Positions 3,440 through 64,000 of a stretch of 64,000 nt of DNA are shown piece by piece; position 1 is the first letter of the stretch, and every line of letters begins with the position of its first letter. Under the pieces are notes generated by a model. It did no database searches and was not told the origin of the DNA. It worked only from the letters and a program-made list of their open reading frames with translations. A program made the position numbers and the translations under genes. The DNA is taken from positions 15,662 to 79,661 of the IMG/VR virus record IMGVR_UViG_3300005099_000065. One strand, given 5' to 3'. The stretch comes from a virus.

Positions 3440-4329
3440 ATGTATTAGCTAATTGGAAGGGTGGAAAATTGTTGTACCAAATTTACGGAGGAATCGGAGA
3501 TTTGTTGTGGCGTACTGCTCTCTTTCGTCAAATCAAAAAGTCATTTCCCGACACATATTTGTGTGTGAGCAGTCGGGGACCTCATTGGAAACTGATTTAT
3601 GAAAATAATCCTCATGTGGATGAATTGCTCGATTTCGGCAGCTATGATTGTTCTGAGTTTGACCGAGTGATAGAAGATGAGTTGTGTCCTCATGTGAGAT
3701 GTGGTTATGCTTTCAAAATGCATGCTGTGGAAGCATTGGGTGTATGGGCTGGTTTGGCAATTGAGGATTTGAGTTACGAATACAAAGTGAAAGATGAAGA
3801 GAGAAAATGGGCTAAGGAGTTTTTGTCTCAATTTGCTCGACCAATCATAACAGTGGCTTTAAGGGCTTCGAGTAACGTGAGAAATTGGGACCCCATTCAA
3901 CAGTTGAGATTGATTAAGATGCTGAGAGAAGTAGGCACTGTGATTCTTTTGCATTCTCATCCTGTCGATTTGGCAAGGTTGGATGGGGTGGTGAGCATGT
4001 GCGGAGGATACAATGTTCGACAAGTGGCTGCTGTTATCGAGCAATGTGACCTTTTAATCACACCAGACACAGGGGCTTTGCACTTTGGTTGTCATTTTGG
4101 AATTCCTACAGTTGCTTATTTCGCAGGCACAGACCCCAAGTGCCGAATACGAAAGACAGACAAAAACGTTTCAGTGATGATGCAACCAATTTTGCCTGAT
4201 TGTCATCCCTGCTGGTTTCACGGGGCGAATTGCCCTCGTTTTGGCACTTTGGTTCCCAAATGCATATCATTGTTGAAAGCAGAACAAGTGTTTGAATTGG
4301 CTTTACAAAAATTGAAGGAAAGGAGGTGA
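3436..4329 (+). CDS. GT9 (heptosyltransferase-like) glycosyltransferase
   Basis: GGIGDLL, YENNPHVDEL and AAVIEQCDLLITPDTGALH...GIPTVAYF are GT9 motifs. Confidence 0.88.
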   Translation: MNVLANWKGGKLLYQIYGGIGDLLWRTALFRQIKKSFPDTYLCVSSRGPHWKLIYENNPHVDELLDFGSYDCSEFDRVIEDELCPHVRCGYAFKMHAVEALGVWAGLAIEDLSYEYKVKDEERKWAKEFLSQFARPIITVALRASSNVRNWDPIQQLRLIKMLREVGTVILLHSHPVDLARLDGVVSMCGGYNVRQVAAVIEQCDLLITPDTGALHFGCHFGIPTVAYFAGTDPKCRIRKTDKNVSVMMQPILPDCHPCWFHGANCPRFGTLVPKCISLLKAEQVFELALQKLKERR

Positions 4330-6694: not shown

Positions 6695-7759
6695 ATGCCT
6701 TTAGGTTTCAAAGGTTATTTGATGATTGCTGAAGAAGGAACCACAGTTGCTGGTGGAAATGTGTGGGGTAAGGAAAGCGTGGATTGGTTGAGTGCTTTGT
6801 ATTTTGAAAGCGAGTCACTAGCACCAGCACCAGACATATTCTTTTCCACTGAATTGGGTGGCAGAAACGCTGAAGGAGACAGAGCATTTCGTCGTTCTCG
6901 CAAACGTGGAGACAAATGCGAAGGAGCTATCACCATCACAGCATATCCAGAAGGTGGTGGAGATATGAGCGGATTAGCCTTATTGCTCAAACATGCCACA
7001 GCTGGTGTGACTAGTGGAACACTAATTGGAACAGCACAAGGACTGTCAGATGATTATTATCTCCACACATTCATTCCCAAAGACGAAATCGACAATCTTT
7101 GGAATGGTTCCACATATCGAGTTTACGGATTGACTGTTCACATTGGTCGTGAAGATGATAGTGGGTCTTTGAGAAACTATCCCCATCTGGGGTGCAGAAT
7201 CAGAAACATCACTTTCAGTTGTGCTGCTGGCGAGGAACTGAAATGCTCTGTGGAATTTGTAGGCAGAAAGCTAGGAGACACGGGCACAGCCAAAACACCC
7301 AGTTATTCAGGATTGTCCCCTTGGACATTTGATGAGGCAAGTGTGACAGTGGATGGTAATACTAGACAAATTGATTCCTTTGAAATCACAATCACCAATC
7401 CGATGGTGGAAGCTCACACATTGGGCACTAATGTCTTAGGAAGAGTCAGATTCAGTGGAGCCAGAACTGTAACAGGAAACATCACAGCACCATTTGAGGG
7501 ATGGGTGAAAGACTTGTTCGACAAATGGCGCAACAACCAAAGCGCATCTCTCAATATTAAATTCACCAAAGGTACATATTGGACAATTGAGTTTGATTTG
7601 CCTAAAGTGATTTTCACTGGTGCTCCACCCAGCATTGGAGGTCCCGAAGAACTGGTAGTCACTATGCCATTCCAAGCGCTGTGGGACGAAAGCTCAGGAT
7701 ATGATATTCGAATCAAACTCAGCAACAGAGATGAAAAGGTAGGTTATGACATTAGCTAA
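6695..7759 (+). CDS. major tail tube protein
   Basis: 354 aa, beta-rich G/T-rich tube-type sequence (ELKCSVEFVG, FEITITN, RTVTGNIT, LVVTMPFQA) located directly before the chaperone and TMP genes. Confidence 0.8.
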   Translation: MPLGFKGYLMIAEEGTTVAGGNVWGKESVDWLSALYFESESLAPAPDIFFSTELGGRNAEGDRAFRRSRKRGDKCEGAITITAYPEGGGDMSGLALLLKHATAGVTSGTLIGTAQGLSDDYYLHTFIPKDEIDNLWNGSTYRVYGLTVHIGREDDSGSLRNYPHLGCRIRNITFSCAAGEELKCSVEFVGRKLGDTGTAKTPSYSGLSPWTFDEASVTVDGNTRQIDSFEITITNPMVEAHTLGTNVLGRVRFSGARTVTGNITAPFEGWVKDLFDKWRNNQSASLNIKFTKGTYWTIEFDLPKVIFTGAPPSIGGPEELVVTMPFQALWDESSGYDIRIKLSNRDEKVGYDIS

Positions 7760-14326: not shown

Positions 14327-14896
14327 ATGGCAACCATAAATTTTTTGGTGGAATGGGAAACAGCATGGGAACCACCTCAAGGACCCAAGCTATTGTCCAG
14401 AGTGTTAACCAACTTGGACAAGAGGATCTTCACTTCGGGTTTTTTGGACAGATTTTGGAACAAAGTGGCAAGGAACATTGGCAGAGCAGTGGCTGAGAAA
14501 TTTGAAACCAAACCAGGTTGGCCTCCATTGAAACCTCGTTACAGAAAATGGAAAGAGTCAGCTGTGGCTCATGGATGGAAAGTGAAAGTGGGAGTTTTCG
14601 GCAAAAAGGTGGCAAAATTCACAGAAATGGGCAAACTGACAGGAATCATGTATGAATCGGCTACTCGCAAAAGACGTTGGGCGAACATTTTTGAAATCCG
14701 AGACGAACCTCACTTTCGCAAAGCCCATTTCAAATATGCCATCGACTTAACCAAACTTCCTTATGCTCGCAAATTTGACACCATTCGACCCTTCTTTTAC
14801 CTCACGGCTGAAGAAGCAAACAAAGTGATGAAAAATCTGCATTTGATTTGCTGGAGAGAAATGAGAAAAGTGATAAAACAACAAATGGGGGTATGA
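14327..14896 (+). CDS. tail completion / virion morphogenesis protein (Mu gpG/HK97 gp10-like)
   Basis: Basic 189-aa protein with WPPLKPRY, GKLTG and RPFFYL patterns; adjacent to the terminator-like gene. Confidence 0.6.
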   Translation: MATINFLVEWETAWEPPQGPKLLSRVLTNLDKRIFTSGFLDRFWNKVARNIGRAVAEKFETKPGWPPLKPRYRKWKESAVAHGWKVKVGVFGKKVAKFTEMGKLTGIMYESATRKRRWANIFEIRDEPHFRKAHFKYAIDLTKLPYARKFDTIRPFFYLTAEEANKVMKNLHLICWREMRKVIKQQMGV

Positions 14897-25188: not shown

Positions 25189-26013
25189 TCATTCTTCTTG
25201 CGATTCGATTTCTTGAATGGCTTTTTTATACCACTCATTGCTCAAGTCTTTCCAAAACAATGTTTGCTTTTCTTTCATTTCCAAATACTCAACCAATTGT
25301 TGAGCAGTTATCCAATCCTTCAATCGAGCTGGATAACCTTGGGAATTAAGCTCCTTTTCTATTTGAGCCAAAGTCAAAATGTTCCTTTTACCCTCTTCGT
25401 CTTTCCAGCAATGTTCAAATTCCCTCAACCTTCCCAATATGCAAGGAAAACAACCCACACGAGCGAAACCCCGAGAATAAAGGGGATTGGGTTGAATGCT
25501 CCGAGAGCGCAACAATTGGAACACTTGAGGTACCGAATAGCGCAATAGAGGAAAATGACATGTGATCCGAGACAATTTGTTTCTCATTCCTTTTCTCAAA
25601 GATGCCCATTTTAGCCAATCCCGACAATTCATGTAAGCTGAGGTGTATTTGATACGACGTGAACGGCTTTCGCTTTTTCTGATTCCAATCCAAAGCTCTG
25701 TTATGTCATAACCAGAAAAAGCCAAAAATTCAGCCACTGGTCTGGTTTTCAAATAACCAGTGCAGAATCTGATTTTGGAATTGGGAAATCTTTTCCACTT
25801 TCGTATCAAATCAATCAAAGTGTAGGATGGAGACAATCTGATTATGCGCACACCCAAAACCCTTTCCAAATAATCCAAATATTCATATGTGAGCGAATGT
25901 TCCCAACCAGTGTCTGTGAAGATCCCTACCACATTTTCATTTCCATACCTTTCCACAGCCAGCAATAATGTAGCTGTGCTATCCTTACCCCCACTCACCA
26001 ACACTCCAATCAT
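25189..26013 (-). CDS. PAPS/APS-reductase family (PP-loop) protein
   Basis: SGGKDS PP-loop, FTDTGWEH, RFCT..LK..P, GIRKSESRSR and RVGCFPC. Confidence 0.88.
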   Translation of the reverse strand: MIGVLVSGGKDSTATLLLAVERYGNENVVGIFTDTGWEHSLTYEYLDYLERVLGVRIIRLSPSYTLIDLIRKWKRFPNSKIRFCTGYLKTRPVAEFLAFSGYDITELWIGIRKSESRSRRIKYTSAYMNCRDWLKWASLRKGMRNKLSRITCHFPLLRYSVPQVFQLLRSRSIQPNPLYSRGFARVGCFPCILGRLREFEHCWKDEEGKRNILTLAQIEKELNSQGYPARLKDWITAQQLVEYLEMKEKQTLFWKDLSNEWYKKAIQEIESQEE

Positions 26014-26125: not shown

Positions 26126-26461
26126 TTATTTTTTCCAACCAGCAATAGCTGAATTTCTAAATTGTTTAGCAGCTTCCACCACTTCAGGATGAGGATGTTC
26201 AAAACTCACTCCTATGTATTCATCTGACGTCCATTTGACCACACCCTTCAACACGTGAACGCTATTCAATATCAAATGAACCTCTATGGAATCTCCTTTT
26301 TTGAAATTGTGTCCATCTTTTTCTACCAAACACCCTCGCTCACTGATGTTCAGCATCCGAGCTGGCTCAGCAGGCAAGGTGGTCTCAAGCAAACCAAAAC
26401 TTTTTTTGATATAAGCTAAATTCCAAGTAAGGAGACGAGGGCTTTTCCTCTTTTCCTCCAT
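26126..26461 (-). CDS. PilZ-domain protein
   Basis: RKSPR (RxxxR) and NISERG (D/NxSxxG) motifs, then GVVKW...IGVSF; GGAGG SD. Confidence 0.8.
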   Translation of the reverse strand: MEEKRKSPRLLTWNLAYIKKSFGLLETTLPAEPARMLNISERGCLVEKDGHNFKKGDSIEVHLILNSVHVLKGVVKWTSDEYIGVSFEHPHPEVVEAAKQFRNSAIAGWKK

Positions 26462-52838: not shown

Positions 52839-53411
52839 GTGGTTATGGATTATTGGAATGTGGAAAGAATTGAGAATTGGGAATTTGTCGGTTTGATATC
52901 TAGGGAAACCAGTGCTATTTGTTTTGAAATTCAAATCCTCGACCAAGTTTTTGTTATTCCTGTTGGATATGAAGATTGGGCAAGAGCAGTTGGAAAGAAA
53001 GCTAAACTACGTTTGGTTCCTAGACAATATGAGAATTATGAAGTGCTTGTTTTTGAGAATTCGAAGGTGCGTCGGGTGTGGTTGGATCCAGTGGAGTTGT
53101 ATTCTCGAGTGGTTGTTTCTAAAAAAGAGTATGAATTGGCTCACGACAAGATTGAGAAAGGTTTGGTTGATTCTGTTTTTCAGTTTGCAAAAAAGGAAGG
53201 ATGGATAGACAACACAATTCGTCTGACTCAAGGAGAAATACCAGTCAAATGCTTGATCATAAATGTGGAGCGTCTGATTCCGATGAAGGTGTATATTTAT
53301 TTATACAAGAACAAAGAAGTCAAAGTCGAGGAGTCTCCATTGTATAAAATGACTTGCAGATTTGAAGGTTTTTTGTATAAAAATCCAAATAGGGAGGTGG
53401 TGTTAAAATGA
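52839..53411 (+). CDS. hypothetical protein
   Basis: 190-aa ORF packed between neighbouring genes. Confidence 0.6.
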   Translation: MVMDYWNVERIENWEFVGLISRETSAICFEIQILDQVFVIPVGYEDWARAVGKKAKLRLVPRQYENYEVLVFENSKVRRVWLDPVELYSRVVVSKKEYELAHDKIEKGLVDSVFQFAKKEGWIDNTIRLTQGEIPVKCLIINVERLIPMKVYIYLYKNKEVKVEESPLYKMTCRFEGFLYKNPNREVVLK

Positions 53412-53850: not shown

Positions 53851-54294
53851 ATGAGAGTAACTGGAGAAGCCTTGGAAAGATTGAAGAGACAATTTAAAAG
53901 GAGAAAGCCAATATTGATTCATAAGCTCAACAATCATCGTTGTATCTTGTGTGGAGCTGAGGCTAATAGTTATCACCACCTGATTCCATTATCATATTCG
54001 GCTGCTTATTTGGAAGGAGTGAATTCCAGTTGCAATTTGGTTCCTTGTTGTTTGGGTCCCGAACGCTGGTGTCATTTCAGATTGAATGGCGTTAGCTATT
54101 GTTTTTTGAGCGTGAATAGGAATTTGTATGGTAAATTGCCTTTGAGAGTGTTGGCTGGTTTGATTAGGCAGTGGATTGAATTGTATCGTGATGAGTTGAG
54201 AAAAAAGAGAGCAGCTGAGCTCAAGCCTTATATGAAAGTGAAGAAATTAATTTTATGTGGAAATGAAATTTTGGCTCGATTTGAAAGGAGGTGA
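53851..54294 (+). CDS. HNH endonuclease
   Basis: CILCG...YHHLIP...NSSCNLVPCC...CH. Confidence 0.75.
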   Translation: MRVTGEALERLKRQFKRRKPILIHKLNNHRCILCGAEANSYHHLIPLSYSAAYLEGVNSSCNLVPCCLGPERWCHFRLNGVSYCFLSVNRNLYGKLPLRVLAGLIRQWIELYRDELRKKRAAELKPYMKVKKLILCGNEILARFERR

Positions 54295-54299
54295 AAATC

Positions 54300-54431
54300 A
54301 TGGCAAAAAAAGGATGTCCTGGGTCAAAGATTAGAAGTGGAGGCAAGGGCAGAGGCTTGGGTCGAGGTCAAGGCAAAGGACCTATGGGCGTGCCCATAGG
54401 TCAAAGCAAAACAACAAAAACTAAAAAATAA
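54300..54431 (+). CDS. small basic Gly-rich protein (43 aa)
   Basis: Strong SD GGAGGTGA. MAKKGCPGSKIRSGGKGRGLGRGQGKGPMGVPIG...; stop abuts the cytochrome's SD. Below the ORF-track length cut-off. Confidence 0.6.
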   Translation: MAKKGCPGSKIRSGGKGRGLGRGQGKGPMGVPIGQSKTTKTKK

Positions 54432-54443
54432 GGAGGTGATAAG

Positions 54444-55541
54444 ATGAGAAAATTTGTTGCTTTATTTGTTTGTTCGGCATTGGTTTTGTGGGTAGTTTGT
54501 GCCATGGCAAAGGTGACGGGTCCTTGCGCTGATTGTCATACAATGCATTATAGTCAAGGTGGAAATGCAAATAATTATCCTTCTGGTGGACCTTTTCCTT
54601 CTTTAACAATAGGGGATTGTATCGGCTGTCATGCTGGCAATACTCCTATTAAAGGCACTAACGATGAGATTCCTGTCGTGTTGAGAAACACAGAGCCAAC
54701 TGGGACAGGTCCTAACAAGAGTCTGGCTGGAGGAGATTTCTATTGGGTTGGACAGGGGGATGATGCTAAGGGTCACAATGTGGTTGGTATAAGCGGCGAG
54801 GATCAAATGGGTCGTACTCCACCTGGTTGGGATCCAACAGACAATGCTGCTAAGGCTTATGGTGTTGTTGCTAATGGTGAAGCAGTTTGGAGCAAACAAC
54901 TCACTTGTGCTGGTACATACGGTTGTCATGGTTATCATGATGAAGAAAATGATTATCGAGCTATCAAAGGAGCTCATCACGGAAATGACGATTGCCTCAA
55001 AGCAGATACTTTGGATGTAAGCGAACAAGGTACTTCAACAGCCACTAGCTATCGATTTCTATATGGTATTAAGGGGATTGAAGACAAAGATTGGGAATAC
55101 ACAGCTCAGGATGGTTCAACAGACCACAATCAATATTATGGGGTGAATGGAAACACGAATCAAACTGCTCCCACCGTCAGCTTTCTTTGTGCCGAGTGTC
55201 ACGGTGATTTTCATGCGGATATTCAGGACGGAAACGTGTGGATTAGACATCCCACAGATATAGTTTTACCAGCTAAAGGTGAATACGAAAAGTATAATGG
55301 TGGAACAGGTTCAGCTAATCCTTACAGTGTGTTAGCGCCTGTGGGGAGCGATTTGAGCACTGGAGTAAGAGACACAATCAATCCAGGCAGTGCAGACGCA
55401 ATTGTTCTTTGTGTTTCTTGTCACAGAGCTCACGGTTCTGAGTATGATGACATTTTGAGATGGAATTACACTGGTGAATGTGAGGCTGGTCAAGGTGATA
55501 TGACTAAATGCGGCTGCAAAGTATGTCATACTGAAAAATAA
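54444..55541 (+). CDS. secreted hexaheme c-type cytochrome, OmcS-like
   Basis: Signal peptide. Heme sites CADCH, CIGCH, CAGTYGCH, CAECH, CVSCH, CKVCH. OmcS-like motifs CHTMH, GGDF.WV, KGHN, RHP and CHRAH.S. Confidence 0.85.
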   Translation: MRKFVALFVCSALVLWVVCAMAKVTGPCADCHTMHYSQGGNANNYPSGGPFPSLTIGDCIGCHAGNTPIKGTNDEIPVVLRNTEPTGTGPNKSLAGGDFYWVGQGDDAKGHNVVGISGEDQMGRTPPGWDPTDNAAKAYGVVANGEAVWSKQLTCAGTYGCHGYHDEENDYRAIKGAHHGNDDCLKADTLDVSEQGTSTATSYRFLYGIKGIEDKDWEYTAQDGSTDHNQYYGVNGNTNQTAPTVSFLCAECHGDFHADIQDGNVWIRHPTDIVLPAKGEYEKYNGGTGSANPYSVLAPVGSDLSTGVRDTINPGSADAIVLCVSCHRAHGSEYDDILRWNYTGECEAGQGDMTKCGCKVCHTEK

Positions 55542-55546
55542 ACACA

Positions 55547-55616
55547 AGCCGTGGCTAGGGAGGTCCTCCTTTCTTGCCTGCCCATCCCTTCACCTCCTTT
55601 CGCCCTGGCCATGGCT
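55547..55616. other. GC-rich stem-loop (14-bp stem) after the cytochrome gene, carrying two CCTCCTTTC motifs
   Basis: AGCCGTGGCTAGGG (55547-55560) pairs with CCCTGGCCATGGCT (55603-55616), including two G-U pairs. Confidence 0.55.
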
Positions 55617-55632
55617 GTGACGGAGGAAAAAG

Positions 55633-56100
55633 ATGATAACCATTAATGATTTTATGTACGAGTTAGAACCAGATGAGCTTCGTGAAGCTTTGGGAATCAC
55701 GCAAGAGGATTGGGCTGCTTTTATGGAGGATTTTTGTGAAGTCGCTTCGTCTTCAACCAGATTGCACGAGTTTCTTAAACGGTGTGGAGAGTTTCCAACT
55801 GTTTTGTTAGCAATGTTGCTGGCTCAGCTTTTCGCTGGAAAAGGTTATTTGGTTTTGCGAGATGCTCATGCAGATGTTTGGATTTTGCTCATGAGTTGTT
55901 GGATTGAGAAAGTGGAAAAGAGTTTGGAAGAAGAGGGAGATGGGATTATAGATCCTTTGTTTTATTTTGAGGACCTTCGATATTTTCCCAAACCACTTTT
56001 GATATCATTTTTGTGGTTTGTTTGCACTGCTATTGAAAAACATGTCAAGTCTAATGAGAAACATGAGCGCAAAGTACATCGTCGGAATAGATCCAGGTAA
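55633..56100 (+). CDS. hypothetical protein
   Basis: GGAGG SD; 155 aa; acidic and helical. Confidence 0.6.
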   Translation: MITINDFMYELEPDELREALGITQEDWAAFMEDFCEVASSSTRLHEFLKRCGEFPTVLLAMLLAQLFAGKGYLVLRDAHADVWILLMSCWIEKVEKSLEEEGDGIIDPLFYFEDLRYFPKPLLISFLWFVCTAIEKHVKSNEKHERKVHRRNRSR

Positions 56101-56506
56101 AACATCAGGCTTAGCCATCCTTGCTCAATCGGGTGTTTTGTTGTATCACACTCAAGGATCTCCTGTTATGATTTGGGAAGTACTAGAGACATATCATCCA
56201 GATTATGCAGTGTTGGAAAAGGCAACAGCCAGACCCAAGCAAGGAGTGGTTAGCACTTGTAGCTTTTGCAAAACGTTTGGTTTTTGGGAAGGAGTATTGA
56301 CGGCTTTGAGAATACCTTATGTTTTGGTGTCTCCCACTCGATGGAAAAGAGTTTTGGACAGTGGAAAAAGGGACAAGGCTCATGTGATAGATTGGGTTAA
56401 TCGGATGTTTGGTTTGAAATTGAAGAAATCTTATCACCATGAAGCCGAAGCTGTTGCTATGGCTTGGTGGGGTTTGGGAGAGTTGAAAAAGACAGGAGCG
56501 ATTTGA
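56063..56506 (+). CDS. ruvC: RuvC-like Holliday junction resolvase
   Basis: IVGIDPG, VLEK, VSPTRWK and EAEAVAMA. Start uncertain (56054 or 56063). Confidence 0.8.
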   Translation: MSAKYIVGIDPGKTSGLAILAQSGVLLYHTQGSPVMIWEVLETYHPDYAVLEKATARPKQGVVSTCSFCKTFGFWEGVLTALRIPYVLVSPTRWKRVLDSGKRDKAHVIDWVNRMFGLKLKKSYHHEAEAVAMAWWGLGELKKTGAI

Positions 56507-56613: not shown

Positions 56614-56952
56614 ATGAAAAGAAATTTGAGAAGAGATTTGAAGAGGTGGTTGGAAGAAGCTAAAGCCGTGCTGGTGAACCCTCACACTGGAGAAGTGAAA
56701 ATTAGGATTACAAATGATCGCCAGTTAGTCTTGAGCAGGAAGCAAGCTTTGGAATGCCATGATTTGTTGAAGCAGTATGAATACAAGACTTACAATGAAA
56801 TCCTTTATGCTTTGGGGGCTTGCCATGGTCTTGCAGGCGTGGAGTTGAGAGACGTTGTCCACATCACCACAACGACCGAGTTTTTCTCGGTCGTTGCTGC
56901 GGATGGGAAGTGTATCAATGTTCCATCTGCGGGTACATTTATTTGGGAATAG
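56614..56952 (+). CDS. hypothetical early protein
   Basis: GGAGGAG SD; first gene after the strong promoter. Confidence 0.65.
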   Translation: MKRNLRRDLKRWLEEAKAVLVNPHTGEVKIRITNDRQLVLSRKQALECHDLLKQYEYKTYNEILYALGACHGLAGVELRDVVHITTTTEFFSVVAADGKCINVPSAGTFIWE

Positions 56953-57036
56953 GAGTGCCTCTTTCTTATTTTTTGAAGAGAGACGAAAAACTTTCAAGGA
57001 TTGAATTGGAACAAAATAAATAAGGAGGTGATAAAG

Positions 57037-57213
57037 ATGCAAATAATGTGTGAACAATTTTTTATGGAAAGGACTTGTGGAGGAGATTGTCCTTTGAAAG
57101 ACCAGTGTCCTTTTGCCAAATCTTATATGAAGGAAACTGACATATATTTTGAACCAAATTTTGTTGAGGAGGATTTCGAAAATGAATGCGGAGAAAGAAG
57201 TGAGGACTTATAG
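57037..57213 (+). CDS. small Cys-containing hypothetical protein
   Basis: GGAGGTGA SD; C..C.GDCP..DQCP. Confidence 0.5.
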   Translation: MQIMCEQFFMERTCGGDCPLKDQCPFAKSYMKETDIYFEPNFVEEDFENECGERSEDL

Positions 57214-57376
57214 TTATAAAGTTGTTTGCGCTTGGTGTAAGAAGCTGGTAGCTATTAAAAAAACAAAAGATTATAAGATGAGTGGAACTGTGTCTCATTC
57301 TATTTGTAAGAAATGTTTTCAAAAATTTTTTGGAGCAGAAGAGAGTAAGGATGAAAAATTTGGGAGGGTGAGATGA
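57182..57376 (+). CDS. small Zn-finger-like protein
   Basis: VVCAWCKK...SHSICKKC. Confidence 0.6.
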   Translation: MNAEKEVRTYSYKVVCAWCKKLVAIKKTKDYKMSGTVSHSICKKCFQKFFGAEESKDEKFGRVR

Positions 57377-59004: not shown

Positions 59005-60930
59005 TTGAAAATTCCTGACGATGTTGTCAAAGCTTTGAAAAAAGCAGGGTTGTATTCTGATTTTGAGAAATTTCTGAATATGAAGATGGTGGAACAAGAA
59101 TTGTGTTCTCATGGTGGCGCTTTGTCTCGTGCTGTGCATCCTTGGTATGGTGCTTATAATCCTGACAAAATCTCTATCGACATTTACGACAAAATGAAAA
59201 CCAATCCTCAAGTGGCAGCTGGTCTGAAATGTATCAAATATCCCGTTTTGGCTTTGAATTGGCACGTGAAAAGTGATTCTCAAGAAGTGAGAGAATTCGT
59301 GATTGAAAATTTGAAACCATTGTGGAGAGGTCTCATTGAATCTTGTTTGACTGCTGTTGAATATGGATTCTCAACCCATGAAATTGTTTACGAAAAGAGA
59401 AATGGAAAAGCATATCTCAAAAAGTTGAAATCTCTTCATCCCAAGTGGATTAACATAAATTTGGATGAGCATGATAATTTTTTGGGATTCACCCAAACCT
59501 GGATGGGACGATTTATTCAGGTACCAAGAGTGAAAGCCTTTATTTTCACTCACGGCAAAGGAGAAAGCTTTGGCAATCTGTTTGGTGAATCTCGGTTGAA
59601 ACCTGCTTACGAGCCTTGGTATTGGTGGAGTACATTAATCCAGTTTATGATGAAGTATTTCGAGAGAAGAGGAATTCCTCCAACCAAAGTCAGATTCCCC
59701 CCAGGCAAAACCAAAGAAGGCAAGAGCACAGCTGAAGTTGCAGTGGAAATGGGCAGGGCTTTGCAAAGCGAATCTGTGGTGGCTATCCCTAGCAGTGTGT
59801 GGGAGATAGGAGGAAAGGTGCTTTACAAGTGGGATGTGGAATATTTGGATGAGCAGAGAAGAGGAGATATGTTTCAATCTGCATTGGTAAGCCTAGAGGC
59901 TAAAATATTGAGAGCAATGTTTGTACCTGAAAGGGTTATTACACAGGACACGTTGTCCAAAGCTGGTTCTTATTCATTGAGTAAAGTGCATGCAGATATG
60001 TTTTTGCTAGGTGAAGAAGGGTTGACAGTGAGCTTGGAGGATCAAATCAATAAATATTTGATTTCAAAGCTGGTGGAAATCAATTTTGGCAAGAAGGCTT
60101 GGGCTAGGGTGGAGATGGAAAGAATTACAGAAGCCAGAAAGCAGTTTTTGAAGGACGTGTTCATGGAAATGTTGAAATCTGGAGATGCTAAGCCTGCAGC
60201 AGATGCCATTGCTGATTATCTGGGGTTGCCTATGGAGGGCAAACAACCAGAAACTCAAGAAGCTGAGGAAAAACCAGAGACCAGCATAAGCTTAGAAGAA
60301 AGTCAGCCAGCAGGACGTTGGTGGAGAGAACCCAATGAATTTGAAGATTCAAAGCTTTTGGTTGAAGTGGAAGACATGTTGAATAAACAAAAGACCTCTT
60401 GTTTATACGAATTGTTGAACATATTCGATGATATGGAGGAACAGGTGGTGGCTAAGTTGGACAGACTGCATAAGCAAGGACAGCCTTTGACCGATTTGTG
60501 GTACAGAAGGGTCAAAGTTTTTGATCCCGAAAAGGGAGAAAAAATAGAAAAGGTTGTGTGGGAACCAAACAAGAACAAAGTGCGTTCATTATTGTCCCAA
60601 CATTTGAAGGAAATTTATTTATGGAGCCAGGAGCAAGCTTTGAAGCGATTGGAAAGAGAAGACAAGCCACAGGTCGATAAGAGATATTGGGATAAGATCA
60701 AAGTTAGACTAGAGGCTATTGCAGAACAGATTTATGGGGATTTGAGATATCAGTCGCATTTAGGTCTTGCTGATGCACAATTGATGGGAGATCCTTTAAT
60801 TCCCAGATTGCGTCATGTGTTTAGTGTGATAAAAAACAAGAAGTTGCCTTCAATAGTTGATACTGAATTTTCTTTTGCTTTTAATGTTGGTCAACAACAA
60901 GTGGGAGATTATTATGGCGTGGCAGAGTAG
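59005..60930 (+). CDS. portal protein (Mu gp29/DUF935-like) with C-terminal extension
   Basis: TTG start after GGAGGG. AVEYGFS.HEIVY, NLFGESRL...Y..W, ERRGIP and GSYSLSKVH..F. Confidence 0.85.
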   Translation: MKIPDDVVKALKKAGLYSDFEKFLNMKMVEQELCSHGGALSRAVHPWYGAYNPDKISIDIYDKMKTNPQVAAGLKCIKYPVLALNWHVKSDSQEVREFVIENLKPLWRGLIESCLTAVEYGFSTHEIVYEKRNGKAYLKKLKSLHPKWININLDEHDNFLGFTQTWMGRFIQVPRVKAFIFTHGKGESFGNLFGESRLKPAYEPWYWWSTLIQFMMKYFERRGIPPTKVRFPPGKTKEGKSTAEVAVEMGRALQSESVVAIPSSVWEIGGKVLYKWDVEYLDEQRRGDMFQSALVSLEAKILRAMFVPERVITQDTLSKAGSYSLSKVHADMFLLGEEGLTVSLEDQINKYLISKLVEINFGKKAWARVEMERITEARKQFLKDVFMEMLKSGDAKPAADAIADYLGLPMEGKQPETQEAEEKPETSISLEESQPAGRWWREPNEFEDSKLLVEVEDMLNKQKTSCLYELLNIFDDMEEQVVAKLDRLHKQGQPLTDLWYRRVKVFDPEKGEKIEKVVWEPNKNKVRSLLSQHLKEIYLWSQEQALKRLEREDKPQVDKRYWDKIKVRLEAIAEQIYGDLRYQSHLGLADAQLMGDPLIPRLRHVFSVIKNKKLPSIVDTEFSFAFNVGQQQVGDYYGVAE

Positions 60931-61792
60931 AGAGGTTTTACAGACACACAGAGGACCTCGAACAATTGTGCGATATGTGTACAGTGCCATTTTAGATTCT
61001 GTTGTTTGTGATTTGTGTCGAGCTTTGGACGGTCGAGTTGTGTTGCCAGGGTCTCCAGAGCATCGGATGTTTACTCCTCCTTTGCACCAAAATTGTAGAT
61101 GCATTTGGATCGGGATAACATCCCATGACCCAAATATACCAAGCCCTCATTGGCCACCATTAAATGAAAGTTTGATTGATAAGTTTGGTTCTTTGATGAG
61201 TTTTCGCAAGCGCGGAGAAAAACCATCTTTTTCTCGCTCATACAAACAAGCAATAGAAGAGGTATGGAAGGACGGAGATGGAAAATTTGAAGTTGTTATT
61301 GCATGCGATGATTCAGGAAGGAGATTGTTGAAGAAAGCGGGAAGTAAAACTCAGGTGGAATTTTCTTGGCGTGAAATGAGATTGTTTGAGAAAGCTCATT
61401 TAATTCATAACCATCCTAGAGGAGTGGGTCTCAGTGCTCCAGATGTGGGTTTAGCTGTTGTATCCCAAATGCGTTCAATTACGGCTGTAGGAGACAAATT
61501 TGAATACCAATTGATTTTGTCGGATGAATTCTATCGTTATTTGTCAAAAAAAGGCTTTGTTTTTTGGGGACGAAGGTCAAAACGTCCTTCTCTTTTGGTT
61601 GAGCATACATATCAAAAAATGATAAAAGTTTATCGAGACATTGAGAGAGAAGTGAGGGAACAGTTAGATCAAAAATTGATGAAAGGGAAAATACGAGTGG
61701 AAGAGGCTTGTCTTTTACACCATCATTTGGTTTTGGAACGTTTTGTCAAAGTATTTCCTGGTTTGAGATATATCAGGAGGAAACGCAAATGA
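60914..61792 (+). CDS. MuF/SPP1 gp7-like head morphogenesis protein fused to a JAB/MPN-like (HNHP...S..D) domain
   Basis: YSAILDSVVCDLCRALDG...PPLHQNCRC (MuF); LIHNHPRGVGLSAPDV. Confidence 0.78.
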   Translation: MAWQSREVLQTHRGPRTIVRYVYSAILDSVVCDLCRALDGRVVLPGSPEHRMFTPPLHQNCRCIWIGITSHDPNIPSPHWPPLNESLIDKFGSLMSFRKRGEKPSFSRSYKQAIEEVWKDGDGKFEVVIACDDSGRRLLKKAGSKTQVEFSWREMRLFEKAHLIHNHPRGVGLSAPDVGLAVVSQMRSITAVGDKFEYQLILSDEFYRYLSKKGFVFWGRRSKRPSLLVEHTYQKMIKVYRDIEREVREQLDQKLMKGKIRVEEACLLHHHLVLERFVKVFPGLRYIRRKRK

Positions 61793-61962
61793 GGGTGTTC
61801 AAAAAGGATTCATTTGTGTTGGATGATACTCCTTTTGATTTACAAAGTTTGAAGCCATATCCTCATTTGAGCGAAGCTGTCAAGCAATTCCTTTTGTCAA
61901 AGATTAAGGAAATTCGAATTGTGAATCGAAGTGCAAAGACAAAGCGAGGTGGTAGAAAATGA
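61789..61962 (+). CDS. hypothetical protein
   Basis: ATGA-coupled at both ends. Confidence 0.45.
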   Translation: MRVFKKDSFVLDDTPFDLQSLKPYPHLSEAVKQFLLSKIKEIRIVNRSAKTKRGGRK

Positions 61963-64000
61963 AAAAGTATTATTATTTGTCTTCACTGAGCGATGAGGAA
62001 AGAAAGCTAGCCGAAAAAGATTGCAAAGCATGGATAGAAATATTCAGAATTGGCAAGTGGAAACATCCCCAATATGGATGGATTGTAGCTACTAGGGAAA
62101 TGTTTGAGTCTTTTATACGCAACTGGAAAAACAAGGTTATTGGCAGGGAATTGAGCTTTGATTTTCATCATCGTCCTGAATGGGGAGCAGCTGCTTGGGT
62201 GAAGGATATGAAGATAGAAGGGGACAGATTGAAAGCATATGTGGAGTTTACGCCCAGGGGATGCGAGGCAGTGAAAAACAAAGAGTTTATCTATTTCTCG
62301 CCCGAATATGTTGATGATTATGTGGATAAAGAAAATCCATCCATTCATTACGGACCCACATTGTTGGGGGGAGGATTGACCAACACTCCATTCCTTACCA
62401 ACCTAGCGCCCATTGTATTATCGGAATGTGTGGAAAACCAAATGTATGAATTTCAAGCATGCGTGGGTCCCGAGTGTGAGAAAGCTTTGATTTCAGCTCA
62501 AACAGCAGACATCCACACACCACAATATTTGCCAAATTTGGAGATTGATTATTCAGACCCAACTTCAATAGAAACAGCTTGGGAATCATTGGAGCATCAA
62601 TACAAATCTGAAACAAATGAAAAGAGAAGGAAAGAGCTTTTAAAATTGGCTCGTGAGATTTTTGACAAAGCTCAGTCAATGGGAGTCAAATTGAAAGGTC
62701 GTTTGGCTCAAGCAATAGCCAAAGTTTCAAAACTACAAGACATTTTGAACCATCTCCCTCCCTTCATTGAGTCGAGAGCTGTCATATCATTGATTGGTTC
62801 TCATACCAAAGGAGACCTAAGCTCTGATCTGGATTTGCATTGTCGTTGGGAGTTTTTGAGAAAAAGATTTGAGGAAGCAATTTGCAAATCTTTACCAGTT
62901 GAAATGGGTCCTGTTCACTTCGTGGACGAAAAAATGTTGGGGTTTGAAGAACCATTCACACAAGGCATTCCTCTTTATCATGTGCGATTGGTACGTTGTG
63001 ACCCTGTTGATTGGGCAAGTGAAAGGAGGCTCATTCCTTTACCCCATGACAAAGTGTTGAGATTTGAATTGGAGTTTCGGGCAGGTAAATTGTTGGATGA
63101 TAAAGGCTTCAAGGGTTTGAAGAGATTGGAGGGAGCTTTGGAGGATGGGAAAGTGAAAGCATTTTGGAGTGCAGAAACTGGATTTGTTTTTTATGAAGTG
63201 CAAAAACTGGATGGCAAGAGATTGATGGAAGTGGCGGACATCCAATCCCGATATTTGGAGGAAATGGCTGATGCTCATCCTTTGGTGAATCAAGCCAAAT
63301 TTTATTCAATCTCTCAGGCTAAAGAATTGTGGGACAAAGGATATGACTGGGTATTAGTGTGGCCAGATGATGAGATTGAGCCTATTCACAAGTTTCTTTT
63401 TCATCCCGAAAATTACAATCCAGCCAAGGTGAGAGATGACCAGTTGAGAGACGATTTGAGGATAGCCATCGCTCATTTGAGCAATTTGGACAAAGGTCGC
63501 AGATCAATGTTCAAATCGAGAGAAGAGGGAATCTCATTTTTGGAAAAGATTGTGGATGAATTGTTGAAAAGGAAAGCAATCACTTTCCATCCCGAGGAAT
63601 GGAGCAAAGCAGCTGAAAAATATCTGAAACCGATTTTGCAAAAGAGAGGTTTTAAGTTTGAAGACAATCCTAAACAATTGTCTCAATTTCCATCAAATTT
63701 CAAAGTTGATTTGGGATGCGGTCCCAACAAAGCTGAAGGTTATTTCGGAATAGATAAAGTATATTATCCTGGTGTGGATTTGGTTTATGACTGCAACCAA
63801 GGAATTCCTTTGCCTGATAATTGCGCAGATGAGGTAAGGGCTATTCATTCATTAGAACATTTTGATGACCAAACAGCCATTATGTGGGAAATTTGGAGAA
63901 TTTTGAAGCCTGGAGGAAGGTTGGTGTTTGAAGTGCCCTCCACCAAAGGAGAAGGGGCTTACATTCCCGACCATCGCAATTTTTGGAACAAAACTGTGGT
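61959..64000 (+). CDS. Mu gpI-like prohead protease fused to a nucleotidyltransferase-like and a class I methyltransferase domain (3' truncated by window)
   Basis: Hand-translated; no stop in ~680 codons. Protease: IFRIGKW.HP.YG, FDFHH, FSPEY, GGGLTNTPF. NTase: LIGS...SDLDL. MTase: VDLGCGPNK...GID...HSLEH...RILKPGG. Confidence 0.82.
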   Translation, partial: MKKYYYLSSLSDEERKLAEKDCKAWIEIFRIGKWKHPQYGWIVATREMFESFIRNWKNKVIGRELSFDFHHRPEWGAAAWVKDMKIEGDRLKAYVEFTPRGCEAVKNKEFIYFSPEYVDDYVDKENPSIHYGPTLLGGGLTNTPFLTNLAPIVLSECVENQMYEFQACVGPECEKALISAQTADIHTPQYLPNLEIDYSDPTSIETAWESLEHQYKSETNEKRRKELLKLAREIFDKAQSMGVKLKGRLAQAIAKVSKLQDILNHLPPFIESRAVISLIGSHTKGDLSSDLDLHCRWEFLRKRFEEAICKSLPVEMGPVHFVDEKMLGFEEPFTQGIPLYHVRLVRCDPVDWASERRLIPLPHDKVLRFELEFRAGKLLDDKGFKGLKRLEGALEDGKVKAFWSAETGFVFYEVQKLDGKRLMEVADIQSRYLEEMADAHPLVNQAKFYSISQAKELWDKGYDWVLVWPDDEIEPIHKFLFHPENYNPAKVRDDQLRDDLRIAIAHLSNLDKGRRSMFKSREEGISFLEKIVDELLKRKAITFHPEEWSKAAEKYLKPILQKRGFKFEDNPKQLSQFPSNFKVDLGCGPNKAEGYFGIDKVYYPGVDLVYDCNQGIPLPDNCADEVRAIHSLEHFDDQTAIMWEIWRILKPGGRLVFEVPSTKGEGAYIPDHRNFWNKTV

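Follow-up and report, generated by a model that had tools for sequence, protein, structure and literature searches.

A hexaheme cytochrome gene of the OmcS family carried by a tailed phage linked to Desulfofervidia

The window, which is the whole 64,000 nt stretch of viral DNA analysed here, comprises bases 15662-79661 of the 79,661-bp IMG/VR record IMGVR_UViG_3300005099_000065 and encodes, at 54444-55541, a c-type cytochrome with six predicted heme sites. There is very little doubt that this protein is a true homologue of the OmcS family, with the fold of OmcS from Geobacter sulfurreducens (GSU2504, PDB 6EF8/6NEF), and it is highly probable that the gene is truly phage-borne and functional. 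Cytochrome filaments of the OmcS type are the best-understood biological wires. On balance, the gene is believed to be an auxiliary metabolic gene of a tailed Desulfofervidia phage, sustaining or raising electron inflow during infection. An initial annotation, made from the sequence alone, had already described an OmcS-like hexaheme cytochrome at this position, and its observation as a whole was confirmed for the open reading frame, Shine-Dalgarno sequence, signal peptide, heme motifs, and order of OmcS motifs.

The reading frame is open over 365 codons and is preceded by a Shine-Dalgarno sequence, AAGGAGGTGA, read directly from the sequence at 54430..54439 (+), 4 nt from the ATG, supporting the annotation of an intact gene with a strong ribosome-binding site. 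Related phage cytochromes are present on two contigs of other metagenomes, L112 (24 kb) and L113 (6.8 kb), from a Joint Genome Institute metagenome scan, where the protein is 93% identical, and on a Guaymas Basin phage fragment (L002/L003), where it is 75% identical and its gene is preceded by the same 10-mer. As had been proposed, the N-terminus reads by eye as a Sec signal peptide, with a basic MRK start, a 16-residue hydrophobic core, and an A-M-A/K site before Lys23. The same pattern is present in the L112 and L002 alleles, and the region is modelled as a helix (residues 2-19). The signal is not of the lipoprotein type, because Cys is absent from this region of the L002 copy. The features of the gene are as follows.

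54444..55541 (+): OmcS-family hexaheme c-type cytochrome gene, open reading frame of 365 codons plus stop
54444..54509 (+): predicted Sec-type signal peptide, residues 1-22, from sequence reading
54525..54548 (+): heme 1, CADCH (residues 28-32), then Thr-Met-His35, from alignments to OmcS
54618..54632 (+): heme 2, CIGCH (residues 59-63), from sequence and family conservation
54906..54929 (+): heme 3, CAGTYGCH, a Cx5CH motif (residues 155-162), with CSSCH as its OmcS counterpart
55188..55202 (+): heme 4, CAECH (residues 249-253), from sequence and family conservation
55410..55433 (+): heme 5, CVSCH (residues 323-327), plus Arg-Ala-His330, from alignments to OmcS
55515..55529 (+): heme 6, CKVCH (residues 358-362), from sequence and family conservation

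Homology to OmcS is significant by sequence, profile, and fold; a lack of such similarity had been named in the initial annotation as refuting its proposal. In a phmmer search OmcS (6EF8) was the only sequence match in the PDB (E 3.3e-7, query 26-345 against chain 7-350), and a profile built from 36 family members matched it at E 3.4e-19; with all PDB sequences searched, no family besides OmcS reached significance. The OmcS motifs listed in the initial annotation (CHTMH.S.GG, GGDF.WV, KGHN.V, YR.L.G, CH.D.H...RHP, Y..LAP, and C.SCHRAH.S) keep their order in the HMMER alignment with 6EF8. The terminal C..CH.K lies past the end of that alignment, although the structural alignment does reach both C-termini. 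Searches of Pfam and NCBIfam recognized only a C-terminal Paired_CXXCH_1 stretch and gave no match to a curated OmcS model.

An AlphaFold2 model from 115 sequences, with a predicted local distance difference test score (pLDDT) of 87 and a predicted template modelling score of 0.86, was compared with 48,161 chains using VIA-align. Chain 6ef8_A aligned at Z 16.7 with a root-mean-square deviation of 4.0 Å over 270 residues (model 26-365 against chain 7-407), and the next-best chains reached Z 4.7 and 4.0. OmcS alone also stood out, at Z 9.6, with the first model, made from 36 sequences (pLDDT 60). Foldseek returned OmcS at E 0.07 with the pLDDT-60 model but missed it with the pLDDT-87 model, giving OmcE at E 4.3; this miss is attributed to the loop-rich fold. 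No match was found among the viral structures of BFVD. The weights of AlphaFold2 predate the 2019 release of the OmcS structure and no templates were used, therefore the agreement does not represent a memory of the structure.

The phage protein is thus like OmcS in its predicted fold, in having six heme sites in the same order, in being apparently secreted, and in the shared CHTMH, GGDF.WV, KGHN, CH..(.)H, RHP, and SCHRAH motifs. It differs in being 21-30% identical and about 40 residues shorter, in the Cx5CH motif at heme 3 in place of CxxCH, in three extra invariant His, and in being encoded by a phage rather than a bacterium. OmcS forms filaments, and for the phage protein this is a proposal.

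The count of six heme sites in the initial annotation, five CxxCH and one Cx5CH, agrees with the alignments, which place them at the positions of the six OmcS motifs. Neither phage allele has lost any of the 12 heme Cys, each of which is also found in at least 98% of 118 cellular homologues; in the Cx5CH motif the two Cys and two Gly do not vary across the family (>100 members). Relatives in Desulfofervidus are counted as 'pentaheme' in the literature (PMC9539880), because a CxxCH count misses the Cx5CH site. Thirteen His are conserved in at least 98% of the cellular homologues and both phage alleles keep all 13; residues conserved in the cellular proteins are likewise all kept in the phage protein, except for mild changes at 247, 264, and 265.

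OmcS has 12 His ligands, 11 from the same subunit and one supplied by the neighbouring subunit at heme 5 (Filman 2019, PMC6584659). Twelve His of the phage protein are common to OmcS, six within the heme motifs plus His35 (CHTMH), His111 (KGHN), His165 (CHGYH, against CHDPH in OmcS), His257 (CHGDFH, against CHTDIH in OmcS), His269 (RHP), and His330 (CHRAH). They were paired by lining up local motifs by eye in the sequence and profile alignments. Ten of the 12 are kept in at least 98% of the homologues, with His165 in 91% and His257 in 97%. Three further His (178, 179, and 228) are invariant in the family and are not present in OmcS. His35 is found in 118/118 cellular homologues and in the alignments corresponds to the second His of CHTMH in OmcS, in line with the earlier suggestion that an equivalent of the inter-subunit His is present. 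That residue, OmcS His16, is reported (Wang et al. 2019) to be the ligand derived from the neighbour, and His35, placed by alignment, is presumably its counterpart.

These His bear on whether the phage protein would polymerize. Residues 178, 179, and 228 could give an intramolecular ligand set, the heme-3 motif is unlike that of OmcS, and polymerization of the Cx5CH subfamily is putative; the product might then be a functional, secreted cytochrome that is not polymeric, a monomeric electron carrier or store in the periplasm or at the cell surface that adds to the host pool. However, the whole OmcS fold is predicted, both termini included, the CHTMH His serves only the neighbouring subunit in OmcS and yet is invariant here, and filaments with a heme-rich matrix have been reported between anaerobic methanotrophic archaea (ANME) and Desulfofervidus cells (PMC10553843, PMC9539880). 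A non-polymeric role is considered unlikely on this evidence, and for filament formation by the phage cytochrome itself the chances are judged to be even.

The genome in which the gene lies is that of a tailed phage. The IMG/VR record is 100% complete according to CheckV, and PHROG matches include the large terminase, portal, head protease, minor tail, tape measure, endolysin, and RuvC, together with PolA, DnaB, primase, clamp loader, a UvsX-like recombinase, SSB, and SbcCD for replication and recombination. Although labelled 'linear' by IMG/VR, the record closes on itself, since about 103 nt, with 5 mismatches, are shared by its two ends (window 63898-64000 against genome 1-103) and L112 13393-13730 bridges the junction, running from window position 64000 directly into genome position 1. 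The rest of the 3′-open reading frame at 61959-64000 lies at the start of the record. A search of the phage for tyrosine integrases gave none, serine recombinases not being included, and with its full replication set it is therefore probably virulent. No tRNA genes were found in the window.

Contigs L112 and L113 are collinear with 51.2-64.0 kb of the window at 91-95% nucleotide identity and carry the cytochrome in the same slot, with the same junctions. On the Guaymas Basin fragment the cytochrome is flanked by homologues of two genes of the window, one encoding a 155-residue protein and the other a PilZ-domain protein. Hallmark genes, closure, and junctions reproduced in independent assemblies all bear out the description of the cytochrome as lying between phage genes. 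Of the two flanking genes named in the initial annotation, RuvC (~56063-56506) was confirmed (E 3.7e-26), whereas the 'HNH' gene (53851-54294) has no PHROG or Pfam match and shows HNH-like Cys/His motifs by eye only.

It might be supposed that the gene is an accident, either an assembly chimera, which the initial annotation had itself put forward as grounds for refutation, or recently acquired host DNA of no functional relevance. The 'linear' label and the G+C content of the gene, 43.6% against a phage mean of 40.0 ± 2.1%, would fit this. However, the G+C excess comes from codon positions 1 and 2 (0.51), with G+C at third positions below the phage mean; it is explained by amino-acid content and was rejected as a sign of foreign origin. 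The same junctions occur in two other metagenomes and a diverged copy is present in a third phage fragment, which excludes a chimeric insertion. Cellular proteins are at most 60% identical and, with the phage linkage on other contigs, this shows that the gene is neither a chimera nor a recent host insertion. Selection likewise argues against an irrelevant passenger. Comparison of the window and L112 cytochromes gave a synonymous divergence (dS) of 0.39 and a nonsynonymous divergence (dN) of 0.036, with dN/dS of 0.09, and between the window and L002 dN is 0.165 with synonymous sites saturated. An accidental origin is therefore extremely improbable and is regarded here as refuted.

Among 5.8 billion database proteins, 2,538 match the cytochrome, the best cellular one being 60% identical. 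Named relatives are from Ca. Desulfofervidus and Desulfofervidaceae (54%) and Thermodesulfatator (52%), and the two best matches in metagenome-assembled genomes (L008 and L009) belong to the GTDB class Desulfofervidia. Nucleotide identity between the phage cytochrome and the host genes is about 65%. In a maximum-likelihood tree of 64 rows, the two phage sequences form a pair with 100% support on a stem of 0.36, within a 95%-supported clade of 26 rows that is otherwise of the Desulfofervidia type, placing the phage cytochrome at the base of the Desulfofervidia cytochrome clade. From these sequence comparisons, the cytochrome was taken long ago from a Desulfofervidia-type clade, and purifying selection has since maintained it in at least three diverged phage genomes.

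The host was identified independently of the cytochrome gene. When seven Desulfofervidia genomes were searched with the phage DNA, short matches clustered on one contig (L104, also C44) of the genome G008. This contig carries an array of clustered regularly interspaced short palindromic repeats (CRISPR) with 113 spacers and a 30-nt repeat, ATTTAGAGCTTACCTATGAGGGATTGAAAC, adjoining Cas4 and Cas1. Five of the spacers each have their own matching site in the phage, with 1-4 mismatches over 34-37 nt, and weaker matches were obtained for about four others (approximately nine in total); with the reversed phage genome as a control, there were only 14-15 nt seeds. The spacers thus link the phage to a Desulfofervidia host. 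A search with the portal protein found no prophage in the seven genomes. The G008 locus and the matched places in the window are as follows.

L104 551-2166: Cas4 and Cas1
L104 2595-10211: CRISPR array
L104 10306-12470: CcsA and ResB, immediately downstream of the array
6878..6912 (-): protospacer, matched 34/35 by a G008 spacer
3758..3792 (+): protospacer, matched 33/35
14595..14631 (-): protospacer, matched 33/37
62355..62388 (+): protospacer, matched 31/34 (32/34 in the sister contig L112)
54868..54895 (+): part of the cytochrome gene to which spacer L104:7322-7359 is similar (30/38 at the homologous offset)

The last of these spacers matches the other phage alleles at 28-29/38 and the genes of G008 itself at 20-21/38, which is chance level. 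A cell-type homologue from another sample (L150) is matched at 29/38, and the spacer was consequently withdrawn as proof that cytochrome-bearing phages are targeted. Its link to the phage cytochrome is suggestive, the source of the spacer being ambiguous.

Dependence on host heme maturation had been predicted from the absence of such genes in the window. No cytochrome-c assembly gene (PF01578) is present in the whole 79.7-kb phage, and the CRISPR-linked host has ResB and CcsA. G008 also has three OmcS-like genes, 36-53 kb further along the array contig, so that this host has the paralogues as well as the maturation machinery required by the phage gene. Desulfofervidia are thermophilic sulfate reducers whose electrons come from methane- and alkane-oxidizing archaea. 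OmcS-like proteins are among the most expressed of HotSeep-1 (Ca. Desulfofervidus auxilii) in consortia with ANME-1 and have been proposed to be electron-accepting filaments (Murali et al. 2023, PMC10553843). The extracellular OmcS-like cytochromes of HotSeep-1 and other syntrophic sulfate reducers (PMC10553843; HS1_000170, PMC9539880) belong to the same subfamily as the phage protein, with 50-60% identity, the same Cx5CH site, and the same invariant residues. They differ in that the cellular genes are in tandem pairs, whereas the phage gene is single and lies between phage genes, and in that the phage copies form a clade of their own on a long stem. TPR proteins are encoded next to the cellular pairs, and in one case pilus and secretin genes are nearby. 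In the cellular cluster L151 the cytochromes are accompanied by a Cytochrom_C_asm gene and a radical SAM gene, which might be a dedicated lyase for the Cx5CH site.

In the proposed mechanism, the pre-protein would be exported by the host Sec system during infection, and six hemes would be attached by host System II (ResB/CcsA), which presumably already handles the Cx5CH site in the host's own paralogues. The protein would leave the periplasm by the route of the host's OmcS-like cytochromes and stack head to tail, His35 of one subunit supplying the missing ligand of heme 5 in the next, with phage subunits only or with phage and host subunits together. As host gene expression declines, the inflow of electrons from the archaeal partner, and with it the energy available for virion production, would be kept up or raised. 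The steps inferred here are expression, heme loading, secretion, polymerization, and benefit. That the cytochrome acts in extracellular electron transfer to the benefit of the phage is judged rather probable; that the phage-made subunit enters or replaces the extracellular cytochrome wires of the host is a more tentative proposal, with the odds somewhat against it.

The logic is that of cyanophage psbA, the classical phage auxiliary metabolic gene, which is likewise a host-derived gene for an energy bottleneck, under purifying selection, carried by a lytic phage, and dependent on the cofactor machinery of the host. Unlike psbA, the OmcS-type product would be exported, loaded with cofactor, and active outside the cell, in a structure possibly shared between two species. 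Since the gene has been carried until its alleles are 75% identical, it is implied that extracellular electron uptake limits virus production in slow-growing syntrophs. If the phage-made subunit does join or replace the host wires, the virus directly tunes the electrical connection between methane- or alkane-oxidizing archaea and their sulfate-reducing partners, and infection becomes a point of control over direct interspecies electron transfer and hence over anaerobic methane oxidation in hydrothermal sediments. The scope of auxiliary metabolic genes would also widen, from enzymes inside the cell to an exported and heme-loaded extracellular structure that is possibly shared.

Several points weigh against such an energetic role. 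The Cx5CH subfamily is only about 21-30% identical to OmcS, filament formation by its members is putative, and it is uncertain whether co-polymerization would occur at 50-60% identity to the host paralogues. The gene sits among lysis, recombination, and packaging genes and, if it is transcribed late with them, there would be little time for an energetic pay-off. Extracellular cytochromes may be long-lived, and their replenishment may not be limiting. No other electron-transfer part is present in the phage, in which no second multiheme open reading frame was found. In addition, this phage lineage is the only carrier found in IMG/VR and among the GenBank phages.

The position and variation of the gene could instead reflect remodelling of the host surface. 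If the phage adsorbs to host cytochrome filaments or to their matrix, a variant subunit made by the phage might mask or replace this receptor, blocking superinfection or the loss of progeny on debris. The 93%-identical alleles offer some support. Nearly all of the roughly 25 amino-acid differences between the window and L112 lie in residues 1-90 (window 54444-54710), that is in the signal peptide and in the loops that follow hemes 1 and 2, with about four differing positions in residues 145-365, so that the C-terminal 220 residues are almost invariant. The long stem of 0.36 separates the phage clade from the host proteins, the gene adjoins lysis and late genes, and one host spacer matches the cytochrome gene family. 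However, that spacer is of ambiguous source, and retention of the residues conserved in cellular proteins, other than at 247, 264, and 265, argues for an ordinary function. Remodelling is accordingly thought quite improbable, and a role of the cytochrome in electron inflow is preferred.

No relatives of the OmcS family were found in 50,697 GenBank phage records or in 72,556 PLSDB plasmids, and with the patterns used there were no other carriers in IMG/VR. Likewise, no report of a phage-borne OmcS-family cytochrome was found in the literature searched. Borgs and jumbo elements of Methanoperedens are known to carry multiheme cytochromes (PMC12660748, PMC13444090), and amoC-phages a NapC/NirT cytochrome (bioRxiv 10.64898/2026.06.18.733297). 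These resemble the present case in carrying host-like multiheme cytochromes as metabolic cargo, and differ in belonging to families other than OmcS, the NapC/NirT protein being a membrane quinol dehydrogenase and the Borg cytochromes archaeal. Carriage of cytochromes by mobile elements is thus not new, and it is for an OmcS-type nanowire subunit in a tailed bacteriophage that the databases and literature searched gave no precedent. The gene offers a compact natural OmcS variant (343 mature residues), in several natural alleles, for expression and structural work, and with the spacers a phage-host pair supported by CRISPR is available for an uncultured organism that is central to the methane cycle.

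Directly 3′ of the cytochrome stop codon is a hairpin, with a 21-nt block, CCCATCCCTTCACCTCCTTTC, in its loop that is identical in all phage copies. The block is unchanged between the window and L002 although synonymous sites of the cytochrome are saturated, and 151 loci contain no other occurrence of it. The block mimics the 16S rRNA 3′ end (CACCTCCTTTC) and complements the Shine-Dalgarno sequence of the cytochrome itself; its minus strand reads as a Shine-Dalgarno sequence with an ATG. Seven U come after the hairpin in L002, where it is terminator-like, and a scan for promoters and terminators around the cytochrome gene gave nothing above shuffles. The hairpin, its block, and the 155-residue gene that always adjoins the cytochrome are located as follows.

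55543..55619 (+): hairpin directly 3′ of the cytochrome stop codon
55581-55601: 21-nt block in the hairpin loop (L002 2177-2197; L112 3771-3791; L113 3875-3895)
55633..56100 (+): gene for a 155-residue protein, no Pfam or PHROG match
L002 539-1006, 2240-2692, and 2710-3093: members of the 155-residue family, tandem paralogues around the cytochrome

The HNH-like gene and the cytochrome have between them a 43-codon open reading frame (54300-54431) rich in Gly, Lys, and Arg, without a family match, which is conserved in L112 and L113 and absent from L002. Three stretches of the window, 52853-53393, 56855-57359, and 60348-61941, are missing from the sister contigs L112 and L113 or have other sequence in their place, loss of the first taking out most of a 190-residue open reading frame (52839-53411). 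These look like small variable cassettes around the cytochrome region.

The PilZ-domain protein (26126-26461, minus strand; E 2e-8), of the cyclic di-GMP receptor type, adjoins a PAPS-reductase-like gene (25189-26013, minus strand) in the window. On the Guaymas Basin fragment the PilZ homologue (L002 3-488) is directly beside the cytochrome module, which hints at a shared 'surface/biofilm' cargo set. For the 155-residue family, relatives were found only within this phage group among the 5.8 billion proteins, and there was no Atlas lead either. The family has the motif FPKPLLI.FLWF and two hydrophobic stretches; it is present as a single copy in the window, whereas L002 has a 59%-identical copy upstream of the cytochrome and two more paralogues downstream.

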